Below the pieces are notes generated by a model, which was not told the origin of the DNA, did no database searches, and worked only from the letters and a program-made list of their open reading frames with translations. Below, one piece after another: positions 1,228 to 11,606 of a stretch of 13,700 bases of DNA. A program made the translations under genes and the position numbers. This DNA is from a virus, in UHGV virus genome UHGV-1812412; one strand, given 5' to 3'. Each line of letters starts with the position of its first letter. The first letter of the stretch is position 1.

Positions 1228-1686
1228 TTAGCCTCTCCCCACATTTGACCAATATTTGATTGCACCGATCAAATCATCATAGTGGCGCATGGCATCATTG
1301 AAGCCTTTATAGCTTGCCCATTGTGGGGAAACCTTGTTATTGCTGAATTGCCCACTAATCAGGATAGTCTCCAAAATGTCGGCGTATCGCTTGCCAATTC
1401 GCTTTCTGACGGCCTCAGAGCTCCCACCCTTTACGATTGCATTAATCAGGGCTTTTGTGTGTCTCAGGCTCTCATAGAGCATTGCAGCGTGGGCAGATTC
1501 CATAAAGGAGCGCTTAGGCAGATCACCCCACCCCTCAGAATGAATTGCTGCCAGTGTGGCGTAATTCAGGCCGCTATAGTGCTTTCCGTCATCCCAGCCA
1601 ACCGCTACACCTTCCATCTGTGAGAGCTCTTTATGCAGCTTATCCATCATGCGCTTGTCTATGGTGCAACGGACTTTCGGACTCAT
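1228..1686 (-). CDS. Hypothetical phage-associated protein, 152 aa
   Basis: Intact ORF; its ATG (1686..1684) overlaps the stop of the upstream gene in an ATGA arrangement (translational coupling); GGAGA 7 nt upstream. No family recognised. Confidence 0.55.
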   Translation of the reverse strand: MSPKVRCTIDKRMMDKLHKELSQMEGVAVGWDDGKHYSGLNYATLAAIHSEGWGDLPKRSFMESAHAAMLYESLRHTKALINAIVKGGSSEAVRKRIGKRYADILETILISGQFSNNKVSPQWASYKGFNDAMRHYDDLIGAIKYWSNVGRG

Positions 1687-2513
1687 TTGTTGATCTCCGT
1701 GATGTCATCGAGCAACATGTTGGCCTTATCAATCATCGTTTCGTGGAACTCATTCGACACAACAGACTTATCACCTGCGGCAATCTTTCCAGCAGCCTCT
1801 CCCTGTGCATATTCCCCGCGATGCTTAGCCCTGGTTGATTTCGTAGCAGCGTTGCCAGCGTTGCTACCCTCTTTAGCACTATTAACAGCACCCTTTTGCT
1901 GTGTTTTATTCACCTTCTTACTGTTAGTGAAAACTCCGGCATTTTCGACCATCTTCACCTTGAAGGTGCGGAATTCTTCAAAAGTGCAATCAATAGTGAT
2001 GCAGTCACCAGAGGAAGAGCTACGCTTAACTTCACATTTCGTCATGATGAAGTTCTCAAGGAGTCCGGCATCTTCACTTACCAGGCTAACAAGCTGGCGC
2101 TTGTCTCTCATTTCTATAAGTGCCTGAACAGCGGCGGCAGGGCGCATAGATTCACGGGGATTATCTGGATCAGTGTTCCGGTCGATGTAGTTCTCTTTCC
2201 GGATGATATGAGGGGAAGAGGTAATAATGCCCGTAAAGCTGACAGATTTATCTTTAATGACGGCATGGTCTGACATGGTGGTGCCATCCTCGACCGCATA
2301 GCTCGATTTCTCAACAGGGAACGAATAGCTGACATCAGAGATAGAGTCAAAGAAGATAGCCACATTATCGGTATAGTTGAAGCCATCCATTATATTTTTG
2401 TTTTGTGAATATCCCCCACACATAACAGTGAATGCAGGAGATCTCGACTCAGCTTGTTTTGCAGCTGTCAGAGCATCACTAGCCATAGTAAACATGCCTC
2501 CAAATTGGTCCAC
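1683..2513 (-). CDS. Hypothetical protein, 276 aa, with a Lys/Ala/Gly-rich low-complexity C-terminal region
   Basis: Intact ORF coupled to the downstream gene. The first ATG at 2513 has no usable Shine-Dalgarno; an in-frame ATG at 2486 has GGAGG 10 nt upstream and may be the true start. No family recognised. Confidence 0.55.
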   Translation of the reverse strand: MDQFGGMFTMASDALTAAKQAESRSPAFTVMCGGYSQNKNIMDGFNYTDNVAIFFDSISDVSYSFPVEKSSYAVEDGTTMSDHAVIKDKSVSFTGIITSSPHIIRKENYIDRNTDPDNPRESMRPAAAVQALIEMRDKRQLVSLVSEDAGLLENFIMTKCEVKRSSSSGDCITIDCTFEEFRTFKVKMVENAGVFTNSKKVNKTQQKGAVNSAKEGSNAGNAATKSTRAKHRGEYAQGEAAGKIAAGDKSVVSNEFHETMIDKANMLLDDITEINK

Positions 2514-3010: not shown

Positions 3011-4054
3011 TTATTTAGCCTTGGCTTTTGCCAGAGCAGCGGCGGCGGAGTTACTAACACTCACTTTAACCACAACCTCAGGCATCATGTTCATGAAAGC
3101 ATAAGAGGATTCAATGAAGATTTCTCGTTTACCTCTGGACTCTTCCATATACATGAAAGCTTCACGTGCAGCGCCGTTTGCAAGCTTCAGGTTGCGAGCG
3201 CAAGGGCCGAAAAATTGAGTATAAACGCCCACCATATCGCCTAACGCATGTGGCTGGAATTGTGGGACCAGATAAGCAGTATTCTCTGGCAGACTATCCA
3301 TTTGCACCACACGCAGAGCTAAGCCCGGAATGCGGAAGGTCGGGAAGCCCGGCAGAATATCCTCAGGGAACATCAGACCTTTATCGGTAATATTCTGATT
3401 GCCGAACAACAGCACTTTACGGAGCAGTTCATCAGTCTGAATAGCGGCGAACACCTCAGCACGGCAGAACAGGGTGAAACCACGCAGAGCGCGAACGACA
3501 CCACGCTGTTTAACCTTGCTCAGTGCAACCAGGTCCTGCAGTTGTTTGAGAATATCTTGAGCTAGATCCATTTCAGAGGTGGACTGTTCCACGCCCAGCA
3601 GTTCGCACACATTCAGCTCTTTACCCTTGGTGAGGATAATTTTGTTCTCAAAGAGAGCAAGCTGGCGTGCTTCTTCGTGGGTCTGGCGTAAGCCTTCGCC
3701 CAGTTGAATAACACGACGAGCGGTTACAGACTCTAAATTCTCTTCGGAATCTTTGCCCGGAACACGGATACCTTGCCAGTCAGAAGGATAAATAGCACTT
3801 GATGCGGCAGTGAATGCCATATCACCCGTGCCCGTTTCACGCTCATCTGCGGTAATGGTCGCCATCTGTTCACCGTAGCGCGGATACTGACCGAAAGCGG
3901 TTTGTTTCACCTGGCGAACTTTGTCATATTCAAATTTAAAGGTATTGCACAGAGCAGTAGTGTTGAAGATATCCATTGCTGAAATAATCTGGTTATCCAG
4001 CGGGATGTCTTTAATCAAGCCACACAGATCGCGGACTTCGAATTCTTTTTTCAT
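3011..4054 (-). CDS. Putative phage major capsid protein (lambda gpE-like), 347 aa
   Basis: Long ORF; ATG at 4054 with GGAGG 6 nt upstream (ORF track begins at a TTG at 4060). N-terminal MDIFNTTALCNTFKFEYD and C-terminal IESSYAFMNMMPEVVVKVSV resemble lambda gpE (TTAQLL...KFKFD; MIQSAPLMLLADPDEFVSV) as recalled from memory, not search-verified. Followed by a strong terminator, as expected for a highly expressed capsid gene. Confidence 0.55.
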   Translation of the reverse strand: MKKEFEVRDLCGLIKDIPLDNQIISAMDIFNTTALCNTFKFEYDKVRQVKQTAFGQYPRYGEQMATITADERETGTGDMAFTAASSAIYPSDWQGIRVPGKDSEENLESVTARRVIQLGEGLRQTHEEARQLALFENKIILTKGKELNVCELLGVEQSTSEMDLAQDILKQLQDLVALSKVKQRGVVRALRGFTLFCRAEVFAAIQTDELLRKVLLFGNQNITDKGLMFPEDILPGFPTFRIPGLALRVVQMDSLPENTAYLVPQFQPHALGDMVGVYTQFFGPCARNLKLANGAAREAFMYMEESRGKREIFIESSYAFMNMMPEVVVKVSVSNSAAAALAKAKAK

Positions 4055-4065
4055 CTCCAACCTCC

Positions 4066-7636: not shown

Positions 7637-7819
7637 ACCTGTTGGGATTTCCCTCACCTGTATAAGAATACAGTCATACTTTCCCGTTATACGGTCATAC
7701 ACATGATGGAATAACCTGTTGGAATTTCCCACAGGTTCAACCATACATAAGCATTAACCTGTTGGAATTTCCTACTACTACCTGTCGGTATTTCCCACAG
7801 GTACCTGTTGGAATTTCCC
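7637..7819. repeat. Iteron array: five direct copies of a 17-mer ACCTGTYGGWATTTCCC
   Basis: Copies at 7637-7653, 7714-7730, 7757-7772, 7780-7796, 7803-7819; the last three are exactly 23 bp apart. Two copies are followed by the inverse ACAGGT. Partial copies of the ATTTCCCACA core at 7522-7534 and 8321-8333. Confidence 0.75.
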
Positions 7820-7911
7820 ACACTAATAGATAAAGAGAATAGATTAATAAAAAGATACCCCCCTAACCCCCCAGGGGGAATGGGGAGGGATCAGAGAGTG
7901 GGGAAGGTTTT

Positions 7912-8014
7912 CTAGATGTACGTAATTGGTACACTTAAAGGTGGATAATATGAGGCTAGATGTACGTAATTGGTACACTTAGAATATTCTAGATGTACGT
8001 AATTGGTACACTTA
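7912..8014. repeat. Three identical 26-bp direct repeats CTAGATGTACGTAATTGGTACACTTA, each with an internal dyad TGTAC-N7-GTACA
   Basis: Copies at 7912-7937, 7956-7981, 7989-8014; start-to-start spacing 44 and 33 bp (multiples of about 11, same helical face). A near DnaA box GGTGGATAA lies at 7940-7948. Confidence 0.8.
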
Positions 8015-8339
8015 AATCACATAAGTTATTGAGTTTATTAGAAAAAGTGATTCACCTATATATACTACTGATTCGCCTCCGCTCATCATTAGTATGGTGT
8101 AACTGATTCATGCTTCGCTTACGCTCACATTCATCTACTTACACCCCCTTATCTGAATTGAACATTCCCGTCCAATCCAGCTAAGAGAATTGATTGAACA
8201 TTACCTAACATCCGTTAGCTAACATTCTAATCAATTAACTACTTAATCACTTCCACACCTTCCGGTGGTGCCAAGTGTCCTGGCATGGTGGGAAAAGATT
8301 CTGCCGTTTTAGGTAGAATTGATTTCCCACAAATAGTAA

Positions 8340-8660
8340 GTGTCGGCCCTTCAATGTCACTCTCCTATGAGGGGGAGAGATGACGGGCCTCCTGTGTGGG
8401 TGAGTATCGGAGCAGTCTGTGAAGTATGAGCAGGCTGTGAGATACGCTACTGTATATCTGCGTAGAACAGCCTCCGCTGTTTACGCTCTTTGTGTGGGTC
8501 CGGCGAATGCGACAGCATGAGGCCCACATGTGGACCGCTGCCGAAAGCTTGCCAGCGCCGGAAGGAGGCGGCAAAGAGTCTCCCGCGCGGTTGTAGGTCC
8601 GCGCCGGACTTTAACTTACAGTTAAACCCTTCGGGCTTGTGCGGGTGCACGCACACATAT
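8340..8660. other. GC-rich, hairpin-dense non-coding island, candidate structured RNA or DNA processing site
   Basis: Sharp rise in GC relative to AT-rich flanks. Local stems include TCTCC/GGAGA (8361-8379), GCGCGG/CCGCGC (8585-8604), TTTAAC/GTTAAA (8609-8625) and GTGCG/CGCAC (8639-8654). The only ORFs are two overlapping Arg/Pro/Ser-rich minus-strand frames without RBS. Confidence 0.3.
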
Positions 8661-8843
8661 ATATAAAGGATACACTCATAAATCGAAAATAAGCGCGATT
8701 TTAGCGCCTACAGCGAGATAAACTATACTCCCTAGTGTAATTGCATTACCTGATGCTTAAATCGCGTTGTAGGGCCTCTCATGAGGTTTGAGTTTAACAC
8801 CCTCCAAAGTTTTAACAAAAAGTGCTCTCCCTCCATTGTGGGC

Positions 8844-9013
8844 CATTGACAATCTTATTGCATAAATGCTATAAGTTATTCTGATTTTGACACGGTAGGG
8901 GCCATTAATAATGCTTACCCCTTTGCTGTGGACTTGCTTGTGTCTGCTGTGCAGGCTATGGCACCTATAGCTCGCCTAAATGATAATGATTCCTATTGAC
9001 AATTGGTTGTCAA
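8844..9013 (+). promoter_or_regulatory. Operator-like 9-bp palindromes ATTGACAAT overlapping -35-like TTGACA hexamers; candidate tandem promoters
   Basis: ATTGACAAT at 8844-8852 and 8995-9003; the second is part of an 18-bp dyad TTGACAA-TTGG-TTGTCAA (8996-9013). Possible promoters: TTGACA 8846-8851 + 18 nt + TATAAG 8870-8875; TTGACA 8996-9001 + 17 nt + TAAGAT 9019-9024. Confidence 0.4.
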
Positions 9014-9059
9014 TATGATAAGATTATAGATAGTGGGAGAAACAGATCCGGAGGTCAAC

Positions 9060-9209
9060 GTGGAACTGAGCGACGCTATAGCGATCATCAACCTGGCTGT
9101 ACTGTGGTGCGGTGTTGCCTACATAGCCGGAGTAACTGCAATCGACAACCTTGAAGAAAAAATGATAGATAAATACAAAAAGATTGTTGACAATCTCGCA
9201 AATAGCTGA
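9060..9209 (+). CDS. Small hydrophobic protein, 49 aa, GTG start
   Basis: GGAGG at 9050-9054, 5 nt before the GTG at 9060; product MELSDAIAIINLAVLWCGVAYIAGVTAIDNLEEKMIDKYKKIVDNLANS has one predicted transmembrane helix. Not in the supplied ORF track (below the length cutoff). Confidence 0.35.
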   Translation: MELSDAIAIINLAVLWCGVAYIAGVTAIDNLEEKMIDKYKKIVDNLANS

Positions 9210-9215
9210 TAAAAT
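9182..9215 (+). promoter_or_regulatory. Sigma70-type promoter with an operator dyad over the -35
   Basis: -35 TTGACA (9187-9192), 17-nt spacer, -10 TAAAAT (9210-9215); dyad GATTGT-TG-ACAATC (9182-9195) overlaps the -35 and shares the TTGACAAT core with the upstream palindromes. Confidence 0.5.
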
Positions 9216-9263
9216 ATAAATCATAGGGTAATTCTCAGCATGTGAATTTTCCTTAAACAGACT

Positions 9264-9295
9264 AGCGGGGCTTGTCTTGAGTCCCGTTTCTTTTT
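9264..9295 (+). terminator. Promoter-proximal hairpin plus U-tract (attenuator or 3' end of a short RNA)
   Basis: CGGGGC (9266-9271) pairs with GTCCCG (9281-9286), with one G-U pair, around a 9-nt loop, followed by TTTCTTTTT (9287-9295). Sits about 50 nt after the predicted start site and 44 nt before the next ATG. Confidence 0.5.
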
Positions 9296-9338
9296 AAACC
9301 TACATCGCACAGGCGGTGAGCCAACAGGAGATTGAATC

Positions 9339-9548
9339 ATGGCTAAAACTGGACCGATCAGCCAGCTGGTAGACTGGACTACTGACGAAATCGTCGAGAA
9401 CGTGCTTAAAGGTAACTTTCGAAAAACTTCTGTTTATGCATTTATTCGAAAACACAAAGGAGAATATCCACACATTGAAGCGGCAATAGAAAAACTTAAC
9501 TTTATTAAACTTGAGCGCCAGCTGGAAAGATATAAACACCTACTTTGA
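9339..9548 (+). CDS. Small protein, 69 aa, possibly DNA-binding
   Basis: AGGAG at 9326-9330, 8 nt before the ATG; first gene after the promoter/attenuator. No family recognised. Confidence 0.6.
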   Translation: MAKTGPISQLVDWTTDEIVENVLKGNFRKTSVYAFIRKHKGEYPHIEAAIEKLNFIKLERQLERYKHLL

Positions 9549-9584: not shown

Positions 9585-10454
9585 ATGAATATTAAGTCTG
9601 TTTTTAATATAACTTTAAATGATGATCCTAGTATCCTTTTGCTGCCTATGCTCATAAACAAATCTGGACTATTAAAAAAAGGCGACGCAAGGGATATTTA
9701 TATTTATATGTGGAATATTTACTATCTCAACGCTAAAAAAGAGGCCGCCAAGGTGTTCAGTAAGAAGACTAAAGGAAGAAGCCTCAGTCAGGATATGAAA
9801 GATTCCATAAGAAAAGAATGTTTTGCAATTAATGATAAAGATTCCTGTGTGGAAATCTCTTATAAGGATATAGAGGAAAGAGTAGGAATATTACGACCAC
9901 ACGCAGTAAGGGCAATTAAAAAGCTGGAATCTGAAGGAATTATCACCTGCCTTAAAAAAGGCAATAAGCATAACCCTTATGCATCATGGCAAATTAATGT
10001 CGGAATCTTTGAAATGATGGAAAGAGTAGGGATTGAAAACCTCATTGGGTGGGATCTCTTAAAACCATATTGGAAGAAAGAACAGGAAGCAGCCGGAAGA
10101 GGGGAGGGGGATAAAGCCCCGCAAGAAGCCCCAAAACAGGCCGCACAGCAAGCTAAAAAGGCCGAGGTGGTGCAGTTCCCTTCTACGAAAGATAAGAGCG
10201 TCAGAATCGAGCGTAGCTCTCATCCTGAAAGTGTGACAACGTCACCTGTTAAGACAAACAATGAAGGGCCAGTGAAAGAGATACCCAAAATTATAGACAT
10301 TTCTTCTTTTATGGCAGATGAGGAAGATATGCAAGATGAGTGGTGGACACCTCCAGAAAATAATGATTATGGTTATGATCCTTATGGCTATGATGAAGAT
10401 GAATATAGCCCGTTTGAAGATGAATATATAAATGATTCCGCTATCCCTTATTAA
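9585..10454 (+). CDS. Winged-helix DNA-binding protein, 289 aa, with a Lys/Ala/Gln-rich linker and an acidic, aromatic C-terminal tail; candidate replication initiator or regulator
   Basis: AAGAGGT 7 nt before the ATG. Segment ISYKDIEERVGILRPHAVRAIKKLESEGIITC has the classic winged-helix pattern seen in replication initiators and MarR-like regulators; C-terminus DEEDMQDEWWTPPENNDYGYDPYGYDEDEYSPFEDEY. Function inferred. Confidence 0.75.
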   Translation: MNIKSVFNITLNDDPSILLLPMLINKSGLLKKGDARDIYIYMWNIYYLNAKKEAAKVFSKKTKGRSLSQDMKDSIRKECFAINDKDSCVEISYKDIEERVGILRPHAVRAIKKLESEGIITCLKKGNKHNPYASWQINVGIFEMMERVGIENLIGWDLLKPYWKKEQEAAGRGEGDKAPQEAPKQAAQQAKKAEVVQFPSTKDKSVRIERSSHPESVTTSPVKTNNEGPVKEIPKIIDISSFMADEEDMQDEWWTPPENNDYGYDPYGYDEDEYSPFEDEYINDSAIPY

Positions 10455-10542
10455 TACCCCCAAATAAACTAAATAAACTAAACATAGAATTACTAGAACT
10501 AGATTGATTGCCCTGATCTTTTAAACGTTCGGAGAATTAATC

Positions 10543-11028
10543 ATGTTCAAATCTGATCTTTCTGATTCCCAATTTGAAAAACTGGTAGCACTGCAGAAAT
10601 ATCTCCCCAGTGATGATCAACCAACACGACAGGCCAAACACTTATTAGTCGAGGGCTTTACCCCTGAATTCGTAGCGGAATATACAGGCGTTAAACTTGA
10701 GAAAGTCCAAAAACTATATAATGAGTCCTGGAATCCACGGTGTCGAGTTCCCCTCAGTGTCTATAACGAAATAGATAGAGATAAAAATGTCTTCGAAGAT
10801 CGCCGCCGCAAATCTCTTTTAATGTGGAATTGCGGGATGAATATTGAAGAGATAGCAAAAGAATTAAAAGTAACCTGCTTTCATATTTGGGGCTTGTTGA
10901 GTGAAATCCTGCCACGTAAGGAGCTTAATCAACGTTTGCCTAAGCCCGGTAGTCGTGCTTATCGCGAATTTATATTCATCTACCGCCGCCATAGCAATAA
11001 AGTCCGGAAAGCAATGCAGCGCAAATAG
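10543..11028 (+). CDS. Hypothetical protein, 161 aa, with two HTH-like segments and a basic C-terminus
   Basis: GGAGA 7 nt before the ATG; HTH-like segments FTPEFVAEYTGVKLEKVQKLY and MNIEEIAKELKVTCFHIWGLL. Could be a small terminase subunit-like or regulatory protein; not resolved. Confidence 0.7.
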   Translation: MFKSDLSDSQFEKLVALQKYLPSDDQPTRQAKHLLVEGFTPEFVAEYTGVKLEKVQKLYNESWNPRCRVPLSVYNEIDRDKNVFEDRRRKSLLMWNCGMNIEEIAKELKVTCFHIWGLLSEILPRKELNQRLPKPGSRAYREFIFIYRRHSNKVRKAMQRK

Positions 11029-11116
11029 CTTATAGCCTTCACATATGCCGCAAGTTATTGATTCTGCCGTCCGGTAAATATGCCGGATGGCTCATATAAA
11101 TTTTAAGGAATTCCAA

Positions 11117-11560
11117 ATGTCTCAAATCGCTAAATTACTATCCCAGGTTATCAAAGCTATCGACGCTGAAGATTCAAAAGTTCGCCAGGATCTTTTAGAT
11201 GGCAAGTTTACCAATACTCTGGCATTTACCCGTGACAAAGAGCACTTCTTAGAGCACAAACATCCCGCCTTTGTTGAATGCAAGTCCGCTAATGGTGATG
11301 TTTTCTATGTCGATTTGGTGGTTATGGCTATGCGCCTGTGGATGATTCAGGACCTTATGCGCCAACACGGTGATGATCCTCTTATCAGCATGTGGAACAG
11401 CGCCCAGGATGGCTTTGTGATTGCTGCCTTATCCAAATCCATGATTGAGGCAGAAGGCGCAAGCCTTCAAAACATGGCAGATCTCTTTGAAATAAGCGTA
11501 GGAATGATGCAGACCATGCTGCAGGCGGTGAAGCCTCTCAAGCTGGTTAACCTTGAATAA
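11117..11560 (+). CDS. Hypothetical protein, 147 aa
   Basis: ORF track begins at an ATG at 11087 with no RBS; the in-frame ATG at 11117 has AAGGAA 6 nt upstream. Followed by a terminator. Confidence 0.65.
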   Translation: MSQIAKLLSQVIKAIDAEDSKVRQDLLDGKFTNTLAFTRDKEHFLEHKHPAFVECKSANGDVFYVDLVVMAMRLWMIQDLMRQHGDDPLISMWNSAQDGFVIAALSKSMIEAEGASLQNMADLFEISVGMMQTMLQAVKPLKLVNLE

Positions 11561-11571
11561 TTGATTAATAA

Positions 11572-11606
11572 GCACCCTCAAAAAATGGGGGTGCCTTTAT
11601 TTATCT
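11572..11606 (+). terminator. Rho-independent terminator
   Basis: GCACCC (11572-11577) / GGGTGC (11589-11594) stem followed by the T-rich run CTTTATTTATCTT. Confidence 0.6.

Follow-up and report, generated by a model that had tools for sequence, protein, structure and literature searches.

A very likely gene for a predicted membrane micro-protein, overlapping the next promoter, in a family of satellite-like Escherichia coli plasmids

The locus studied here is an open reading frame (ORF) of 49 codons on the plus strand (9060-9209) of a 13,700-nt virus genome sequence (UHGV-1812412), the whole of which was analysed and is called the window below. The frame runs from a GTG start codon at 9060 to a TGA stop codon (9207-9209) and translates as VELSDAIAIINLAVLWCGVAYIAGVTAIDNLEEKMIDKYKKIVDNLANS. 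A Shine-Dalgarno sequence GGAGG (9050-9054, plus strand) precedes the start codon by 5 nt (TCAAC, 9055-9059), just as the preliminary description of this locus had it, and the ribosome-binding site (RBS), which that description called strong, is also kept in relatives, the sole exception seen being TGAGG in the allele L025. The start codon itself is GTG or ATG, depending on the allele. An extension to 58 aa from a GTG at 9033 was rejected, as this codon lacks an RBS, sits on the predicted transcription start of the promoter P2 (see below) and is out of frame in L007-type alleles. The ORF had been presented as unannotated, which is true of the ORF track available at that time but not of public records: in 8/8 related GenBank/RefSeq plasmids that were fetched, PGAP or the submitters call the 150-nt ORF a hypothetical protein, and the accessions of these annotated homologues include WP_159042952.1, WP_157909277.1 and WP_157794903.1.

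The gene is embedded in a compact array of predicted transcription signals on the plus strand. Its own promoter, P2 (8996-9024), consists of TTGACA, a spacer of 17 nt and a TG-extended TAAGAT (10/12 match to the consensus), and hexamers and spacing are kept in 22/22 unique alleles. The predicted transcription start at about 9031 leaves a leader of 28 nt, and a second TTGACAAT/TTGTCAAT follows 3 nt downstream of the first. A palindrome at 8994-9013 was considered as a conserved operator and discarded, since it is specific to two alleles, while the others carry a direct repeat of TTGACAAT instead. Further upstream lies P1 (8846-8875; TTGACA, 18 nt, TGcTATAAG; TTGACAAT match), a promoter-like element that is optional in the family: it is present in six of the loci compared (L001-3, L005, L007, L011), is replaced in three others (L004, L006, L008), and was left unlisted by the promoter scan because its -10 element lacks the final T. 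The next promoter downstream of P2, P3 (9187-9215), combines TTGACA (9187-9192), a 17-nt spacer and a TG-extended TAAAAT (9210-9215) to an 11/12 match, and is retained in 22/22 unique alleles as well as in the recombinant phage L009 described below. The stop codon of the ORF falls within the spacer of P3 and its TG provides the TG of the extended -10 element, which bears out the earlier statement that the ORF ends inside the next promoter. An intrinsic terminator downstream of P3 (9264-9296), in which a U tract follows a 10-bp stem with a 5-nt loop, should end the transcripts from both P2 and P3 ahead of a downstream gene of 69 aa.

P2, RBS, ORF, P3 and terminator are kept together despite differing downstream genes: in some relatives unrelated genes of 75/95 aa stand in place of the 69/71-aa genes, and the length of the Rep-like protein ranges from 289 to 321 aa. 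On these grounds we lean towards the micro-protein gene forming a short transcription unit of its own. As consensus match and conservation suggest, the host RNA polymerase would start at P2 around position 9031, and the short, presumably unstructured leader would expose the GGAGG. The transcript would then cross P3 and mostly stop at 9264-9296; the resulting mRNA of about 265 nt would encode little besides the peptide, and P2-driven expression of the genes beyond the terminator would depend on read-through. The folding of the P2 mRNA shows no unusual stability (z=-0.9), and in the alignment fold we found neither compensatory changes in the ORF part (covariation term +0.73) nor a conserved structure masking the RBS; Rfam had no match in the window at gathering thresholds and none in 8700-9450 at E<=1. 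The stop codon lies 55 nt before the terminator stem and 130 nt before the next start codon, and ribosome-mediated attenuation or translational coupling is unlikely because of these distances. In L007/L013-type relatives a quite different hairpin followed by a T run occupies the position of the terminator, and L023 has an indel variant, likewise followed by a T run. That the hairpins differ by branch while position and T run are kept suggests regulated read-through, either by antitermination or by antisense-controlled attenuation. We also note that the terminator follows P3 within about 75 nt (9222-9296), an arrangement that would give rise to a short RNA or an attenuated leader before the operon of the 69-aa gene and Rep.

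For the comparison of alleles, 29 ORFs were taken from 31 loci by their RBS-start pattern, and a single shallow E. coli clade, with capsid proteins at least 81% identical, is the source of them all. The ORF measures 150 nt in all 29 and occurs as 15 DNA alleles, so that the conservation among homologues which the preliminary description had proposed to check is indeed there. Variable sites are distributed over codon positions 1/2/3 as 7/5/18, and the Nei-Gojobori pN/pS amounts to 0.21 in the frame of the ORF against 1.6-1.9 in the other forward frames and a range of 1.2-1.9 across the other readable frames. In the hydrophobic part of the protein, codons 6-27 show a pS of 0.106 versus a pN of 0.013 (pN/pS 0.13), and within codons 5-31 ten variable codons have synonymous changes only and four have conservative replacements (I/V, V/A, L/I and one W/C). 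Synonymous sites had been named beforehand as the place where a coding interpretation could fail, and it is at these sites that the variation is concentrated, in favour of coding. Two other frames were considered and rejected: an antisense ORF of 66 aa (9024-9224, minus strand) fails the coding test with a pN/pS of 1.17 in the six-frame rerun, and minus-strand frame 1, the other frame with a low ratio, contains a stop codon and has its wobble positions in common with the ORF. The bare ORF exceeds chance only weakly, because 5.6% of first-order Markov randomisations of the window give an RBS-led ORF of 30-80 aa with a TM-like segment; as judged from the aligned alleles, the comparative data are what makes the gene call decisive where the bare observation is suggestive. 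By the same substitution pattern, 9060-9209 is under purifying selection and very likely a real gene.

The 3' part of the gene follows a different rule. In codons 32-45 (9153-9194, plus strand), 41 of 42 columns are invariant in 22 unique alleles, synonymous sites included, so that 1/42 positions varies here versus 23/93 in 9060-9152. Two haplotypes that differ at 6/12 positions exist for the 12 nt after this block, where the P3 spacer coincides with the last four codons. The invariant block holds the -35 hexamer of P3 together with 34 A/T-rich nt upstream of it, and to judge from this position, the constraint on codons 32-45 appears to act on the DNA; the simplest explanation is that they form the upstream part of P3, with a UP element or a site for a regulator. 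In its last third, the gene would thus double as the upstream half of P3 and be frozen at the DNA level, and the conservation of these codons is uninformative on the peptide because such a constraint is inseparable from one on amino acids. Exact-pattern scans of the viral_contigs and genome_contigs collections with the 42-nt block gave no match, and a scan of metagenomes returned two further members of the same family only.

The predicted product is dominated by a single hydrophobic segment. Its best 19-residue Kyte-Doolittle mean reaches 2.18 (residues 7-25) within a hydrophobic stretch of approximately residues 6-28, and AlphaFold2, supplied with the family alignment, models residues 2-48 as one unbroken helix (pLDDT 82), in agreement with the single-helix hydrophobic peptide described earlier. 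The predicted transmembrane (TM) helix comprises residues 6-28 (AIAIINLAVLWCGVAYIAGVTAI; 9075-9143, plus strand). It is preceded by an acidic N-terminus, MELSD, that varies among alleles (ELS, EIT or AIS), and is followed by 21 C-terminal residues with four Lys and five Asp/Glu, in which L31, M35, I36, Y39, I42, V43 and L46 fall on one helix face by helical-wheel arithmetic. A lipoprotein or signal-peptide reading was dismissed by inspection, as VLWC is no lipobox and a basic n-region is absent. From these predictions the product is likely to be a membrane protein, and the positive-inside rule suggests an N-out, C-in topology. The micro-protein would accordingly be a bitopic inner-membrane protein with five acidic residues outside, the TM helix spanning residues 6-28 and an amphipathic, Lys-rich helix of 21 residues in the cytoplasm.

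No micro-protein family match was found in Pfam (also at E<=10), PHROGs, NCBIfam, PADLOC or PDB sequences; the one Pfam match listed at E<=10, DUF2680, is sub-threshold. Homologues outside the family were also absent from a profile search of 1.84 billion representatives, which returned the gene's own family, P0008 and three spurious long repetitive proteins (P0009-P0011). Inside the family the gene is widespread: the protein collection contains seven 49-aa clusters on well over 100 contig blocks, and a query with the capsid gene, made independently of the micro-protein ORF, detected the element in 7/5426 complete E. coli genomes, always on a plasmid and never in the chromosome, with the ORF present in 7/7. 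Within the genomes sampled, the micro-protein gene is a core gene of a narrow E. coli plasmid family. The search for more distant relatives of the element by its capsid protein returned none, all homologues being at least 81% identical, and for this reason the family is too narrow to test whether a small TM ORF is conserved in this position.

The preliminary description compared the ORF with peptides of phage early regions; it does stand in a phage-related element, yet this element is a satellite-like plasmid and, strictly speaking, no phage early region. The window represents the whole replicon of about 13.7 kb in circularly permuted form, with the ORF of the tape measure protein (TMP) spanning its ends. 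The family to which it belongs consists of circular E. coli plasmids of 13.2-13.7 kb, and the wider protein collection contains related contigs of up to about 14.3 kb. One plasmid record consists of three tandem copies of the element. Among its genes are those for an HK97-type capsid protein (3011-4060, minus strand; phrog_29), the 715-aa TMP (12213 across the end to 660; phrog_5255, Pfam TMP_3), a Dit-like protein (1683-2513, minus strand), a tail-completion protein (1228-1686, minus strand) and a lambda-O-like initiator, Rep (9585-10454; phrog_391, E=3e-5); five iterons of 23 nt (7637-7825) and three repeats of 30 nt (7910-8016) were also identified. None of its ORFs has the length needed for a large terminase or a typical portal protein, and the element cannot be an autonomous phage.

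Several further features of the element deserve mention. A perfect sigma-70 promoter (TTGACA, 17 nt, TG-extended TATAAT; 4908-4880, minus strand) points at the capsid operon and is followed by an untranslated leader of about 470 nt (4870-4401); a TTGACAAT...TGATAnnAT pattern is common to this promoter, P2 and P3. The Rep-like protein has an acidic C-terminus, ...EDEYINDSAIPY (10380-10454), and relatives carry a separate acidic ORF of 48 aa after Rep (e.g. L004 4695-4841; WP_001682500.1) that ends in ...ENDSDIPY. The C-terminal motif of E. coli SSB is DDDIPF, and by analogy the tips of the Rep tail and of the 48-aa ORF, which resemble it, may mimic the SSB tail and recruit host replication proteins. 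The 69-aa gene after the terminator (9339-9548) has no family match, and its DNA is about 97% identical between the satellite and the recombinant phage L009, while some satellites have an unrelated 75/95-aa gene in its place; we regard it as a candidate regulator of the helper-satellite switch.

Besides its gene content, the element shows several ties to rV5-like phages. The best of the tape-measure matches among phages is FV3/rV5-like, albeit distant (27% identity). A GC-rich non-coding block (8333-8589) is about 86% identical to 119 records of rV5-like (Vequintavirinae) phages, where its counterpart is an unannotated intergenic region (63913-64123 in rV5_ev147). It comprises two conserved sub-blocks, one with a long hairpin (RNA fold z=-3.0), and it has no Rfam match, a search of 8250-8750 at E<=5 giving chance eukaryotic matches only. 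A role as universal pac site is doubtful because only some satellites of the family carry the block; it could instead be a structured RNA common to satellite and phage, or a signal specific to the helper. A further link is provided by L009, a 38-kb Logan contig (ERR13318355) with an rV5-like backbone 97-99% identical to phage nom, in which about 1.4 kb of satellite DNA has been captured (10172-11590). The captured DNA starts within the micro-protein ORF at an 8-nt microhomology, so that the last 24 codons of the micro-protein are joined in frame to the phage gene nom_18, and continues in the order ORF end, P3, leader and terminator, 69-aa gene, 121-aa gene and a truncated Rep-like protein of 198 aa, which is 95% identical to the first 197 residues of a 306-aa satellite Rep. 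Homology of the micro-protein tail to nom_18 itself was not supported, as BLASTP gave no match and the junction is the 8-nt microhomology. Phage ICP1 reportedly uses a domain derived from RepA of the PLE against this satellite, and by analogy the truncated Rep captured in L009 may be an anti-satellite device. Taken from these sequence relationships, the element is probably a plasmid-borne satellite of rV5-like phages (Vequintavirus), of which a literature search returned no description.

That 9060-9209 contains no gene, its conservation being due to overlapping promoters and other DNA signals only, is extremely improbable: P2, P3 and the 42-nt block do explain part of the conservation, but they account neither for the 23 variable sites among the 93 positions of 9060-9152, a stretch outside these signals, with their third-position periodicity, nor for a pN/pS that is low only in this open frame, nor for the conserved RBS and start codon. 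We also consider it very unlikely that the ORF matters solely as a regulatory upstream ORF, whose transcription or translation would protect the P2 transcript from Rho or occlude P3, with an irrelevant peptide. The position between tandem promoters and an attenuator-like terminator before the Rep operon fits this idea, as does the DNA-level constraint on the 3' third; however, the amino acids stay conserved even where the DNA can vary freely, as in the TM codons, no allele deviates from the length of 49 codons, and the stop codon is too far from terminator stem and next start for attenuation or coupling. Among functions for the peptide itself, one in direct lysis, where it would act like a holin or otherwise form the membrane lesion by itself, is highly improbable. 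One TM helix with a charged C-terminal tail is a generic holin feature, yet there is no dual-start motif and no match to a holin family, the 15 proteins of the element include nothing recognisable as an endolysin, a spanin or the product of a second lysis gene, and the gene heads a replication-side operon behind sigma-70 promoters, outside the late genes.

A toxic membrane peptide, as proposed in the preliminary description, be it a type I toxin that stabilises the plasmid by post-segregational killing or a kil-like or abortive-infection effector that stays silent until helper infection, is a more serious alternative, but still an unlikely one. With its 49 aa, a single predicted TM helix (hydropathy maximum 2.18) and its location on plasmids, the micro-protein is similar to toxins of the Hok, Ldr and Fst type, no partition genes were recognised on the element, and a promoter-like site on the minus strand (TCAACA, 17 nt, TATCAT; 9190 to 9162) lies wholly within the invariant 42-nt block, from where an RNA would be antisense to the RBS and codons 1-32. 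This site, however, matches at 9/12 positions only, which is the level of shuffled background (10 such sites found, 10.5 expected), and is followed by no minus-strand terminator within 400 nt. In likeness to Hok/Gef, PndA, SrnB and Fst, the product is a plasmid-encoded hydrophobic peptide of about 50 aa with a single helix, but it differs from them in having no toxin-family match, even at E<=10, no supported antisense RNA and no conserved mRNA fold or covariation by which the RBS would be hidden. An exposed GGAGG behind a near-consensus promoter is the reverse of the usual design of type I toxin genes. With the 28-nt leader, this arrangement predicts unchecked expression, and without tight repression a true toxin expressed in this way would kill the cell; no conserved operator was found, the palindrome being specific to two alleles. 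Lambda Kil and P4 kil are likewise short first ORFs that an early promoter precedes in a phage-related element, but they show no similarity in sequence to the micro-protein, and lambda Kil is a soluble FtsZ inhibitor rather than a TM helix.

In comparison with the toxin, a non-lethal accessory role is more likely, and it is favoured because the alternatives can largely be eliminated and because two small membrane proteins, LidI and HK97 gp15, serve as precedents. LidI of the Vibrio cholerae PLE, a satellite of a large virulent myovirus, is a previously unannotated small TM protein of 66 or 121 aa that was detected only after phage infection and for which a collapse of lysis inhibition has been shown by experiment (Hays & Seed 2020, PMC7182436). 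Like LidI, the micro-protein is a small, predicted TM protein of a probable satellite that was missed by first-pass annotation, is restricted to its family and is conserved in all members; in contrast, there is no sequence similarity, and the PLE is an integrated island whereas the present element is a plasmid. The second precedent, gp15 of HK97 (YebO family), is a small inner-membrane superinfection exclusion protein that is encoded by a moron and acts on the incoming tail (PMC3594210). Here the likeness lies in the small size, the predicted inner-membrane location and the own promoter and terminator, and it extends to the moron definition, given that P2 and the terminator at 9264-9296 are both conserved. 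The terminator, however, is common to P3, a YebO match is absent, and the gene is no add-on, as it occurs in every family member found and has a GC content (0.40-0.42) like its surroundings. Universal presence and ordinary GC count against an accessory moron and fit a core life-cycle function better. Furthermore, gp15 acts against DNA entry that depends on the tape measure, and the present element encodes a tape measure protein of its own. Searches of Pfam, NCBIfam, PADLOC and PDB and the profile search returned no homologue among exclusion or defence families, LidI and gp15/YebO included.

The best explanation overall therefore combines a core gene, a membrane protein, a short transcription unit and a non-lethal accessory role, a tentative combination to which we would give slightly less than an even chance. 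The micro-protein would be made during residence of the satellite or early after helper infection and would act on membrane events of the phage infection, either by blocking DNA entry, as HK97 gp15 does, or by shifting the timing of lysis, as LidI of the PLE does. Such a role in exclusion or lysis timing, suggested by analogy, is possible but rather unlikely when taken by itself, and the most specific version, a membrane effector of an undescribed family of satellites of rV5-like phages that mediates superinfection exclusion or resets the lysis timing of the helper, is quite doubtful. More speculative is the notion that the cytoplasmic helix is a portable interaction module, which the satellite tethers to the membrane; it comes from the rV5-like phage that carries this helix fused in frame to nom_18.

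In this context, the main interest of our findings is the apparent pairing of a plasmid satellite with virulent rV5-like coliphages, while the peptide itself, whose gene is universal in the family and one of about 15 on the 13.7-kb plasmid, would add another orphan to the small membrane proteins of mobile elements. If the peptide indeed controls entry or lysis, it would offer a compact handle on the conflict between satellite and helper in E. coli, together with a clean case of a coding sequence overlapping the upstream region of a promoter.
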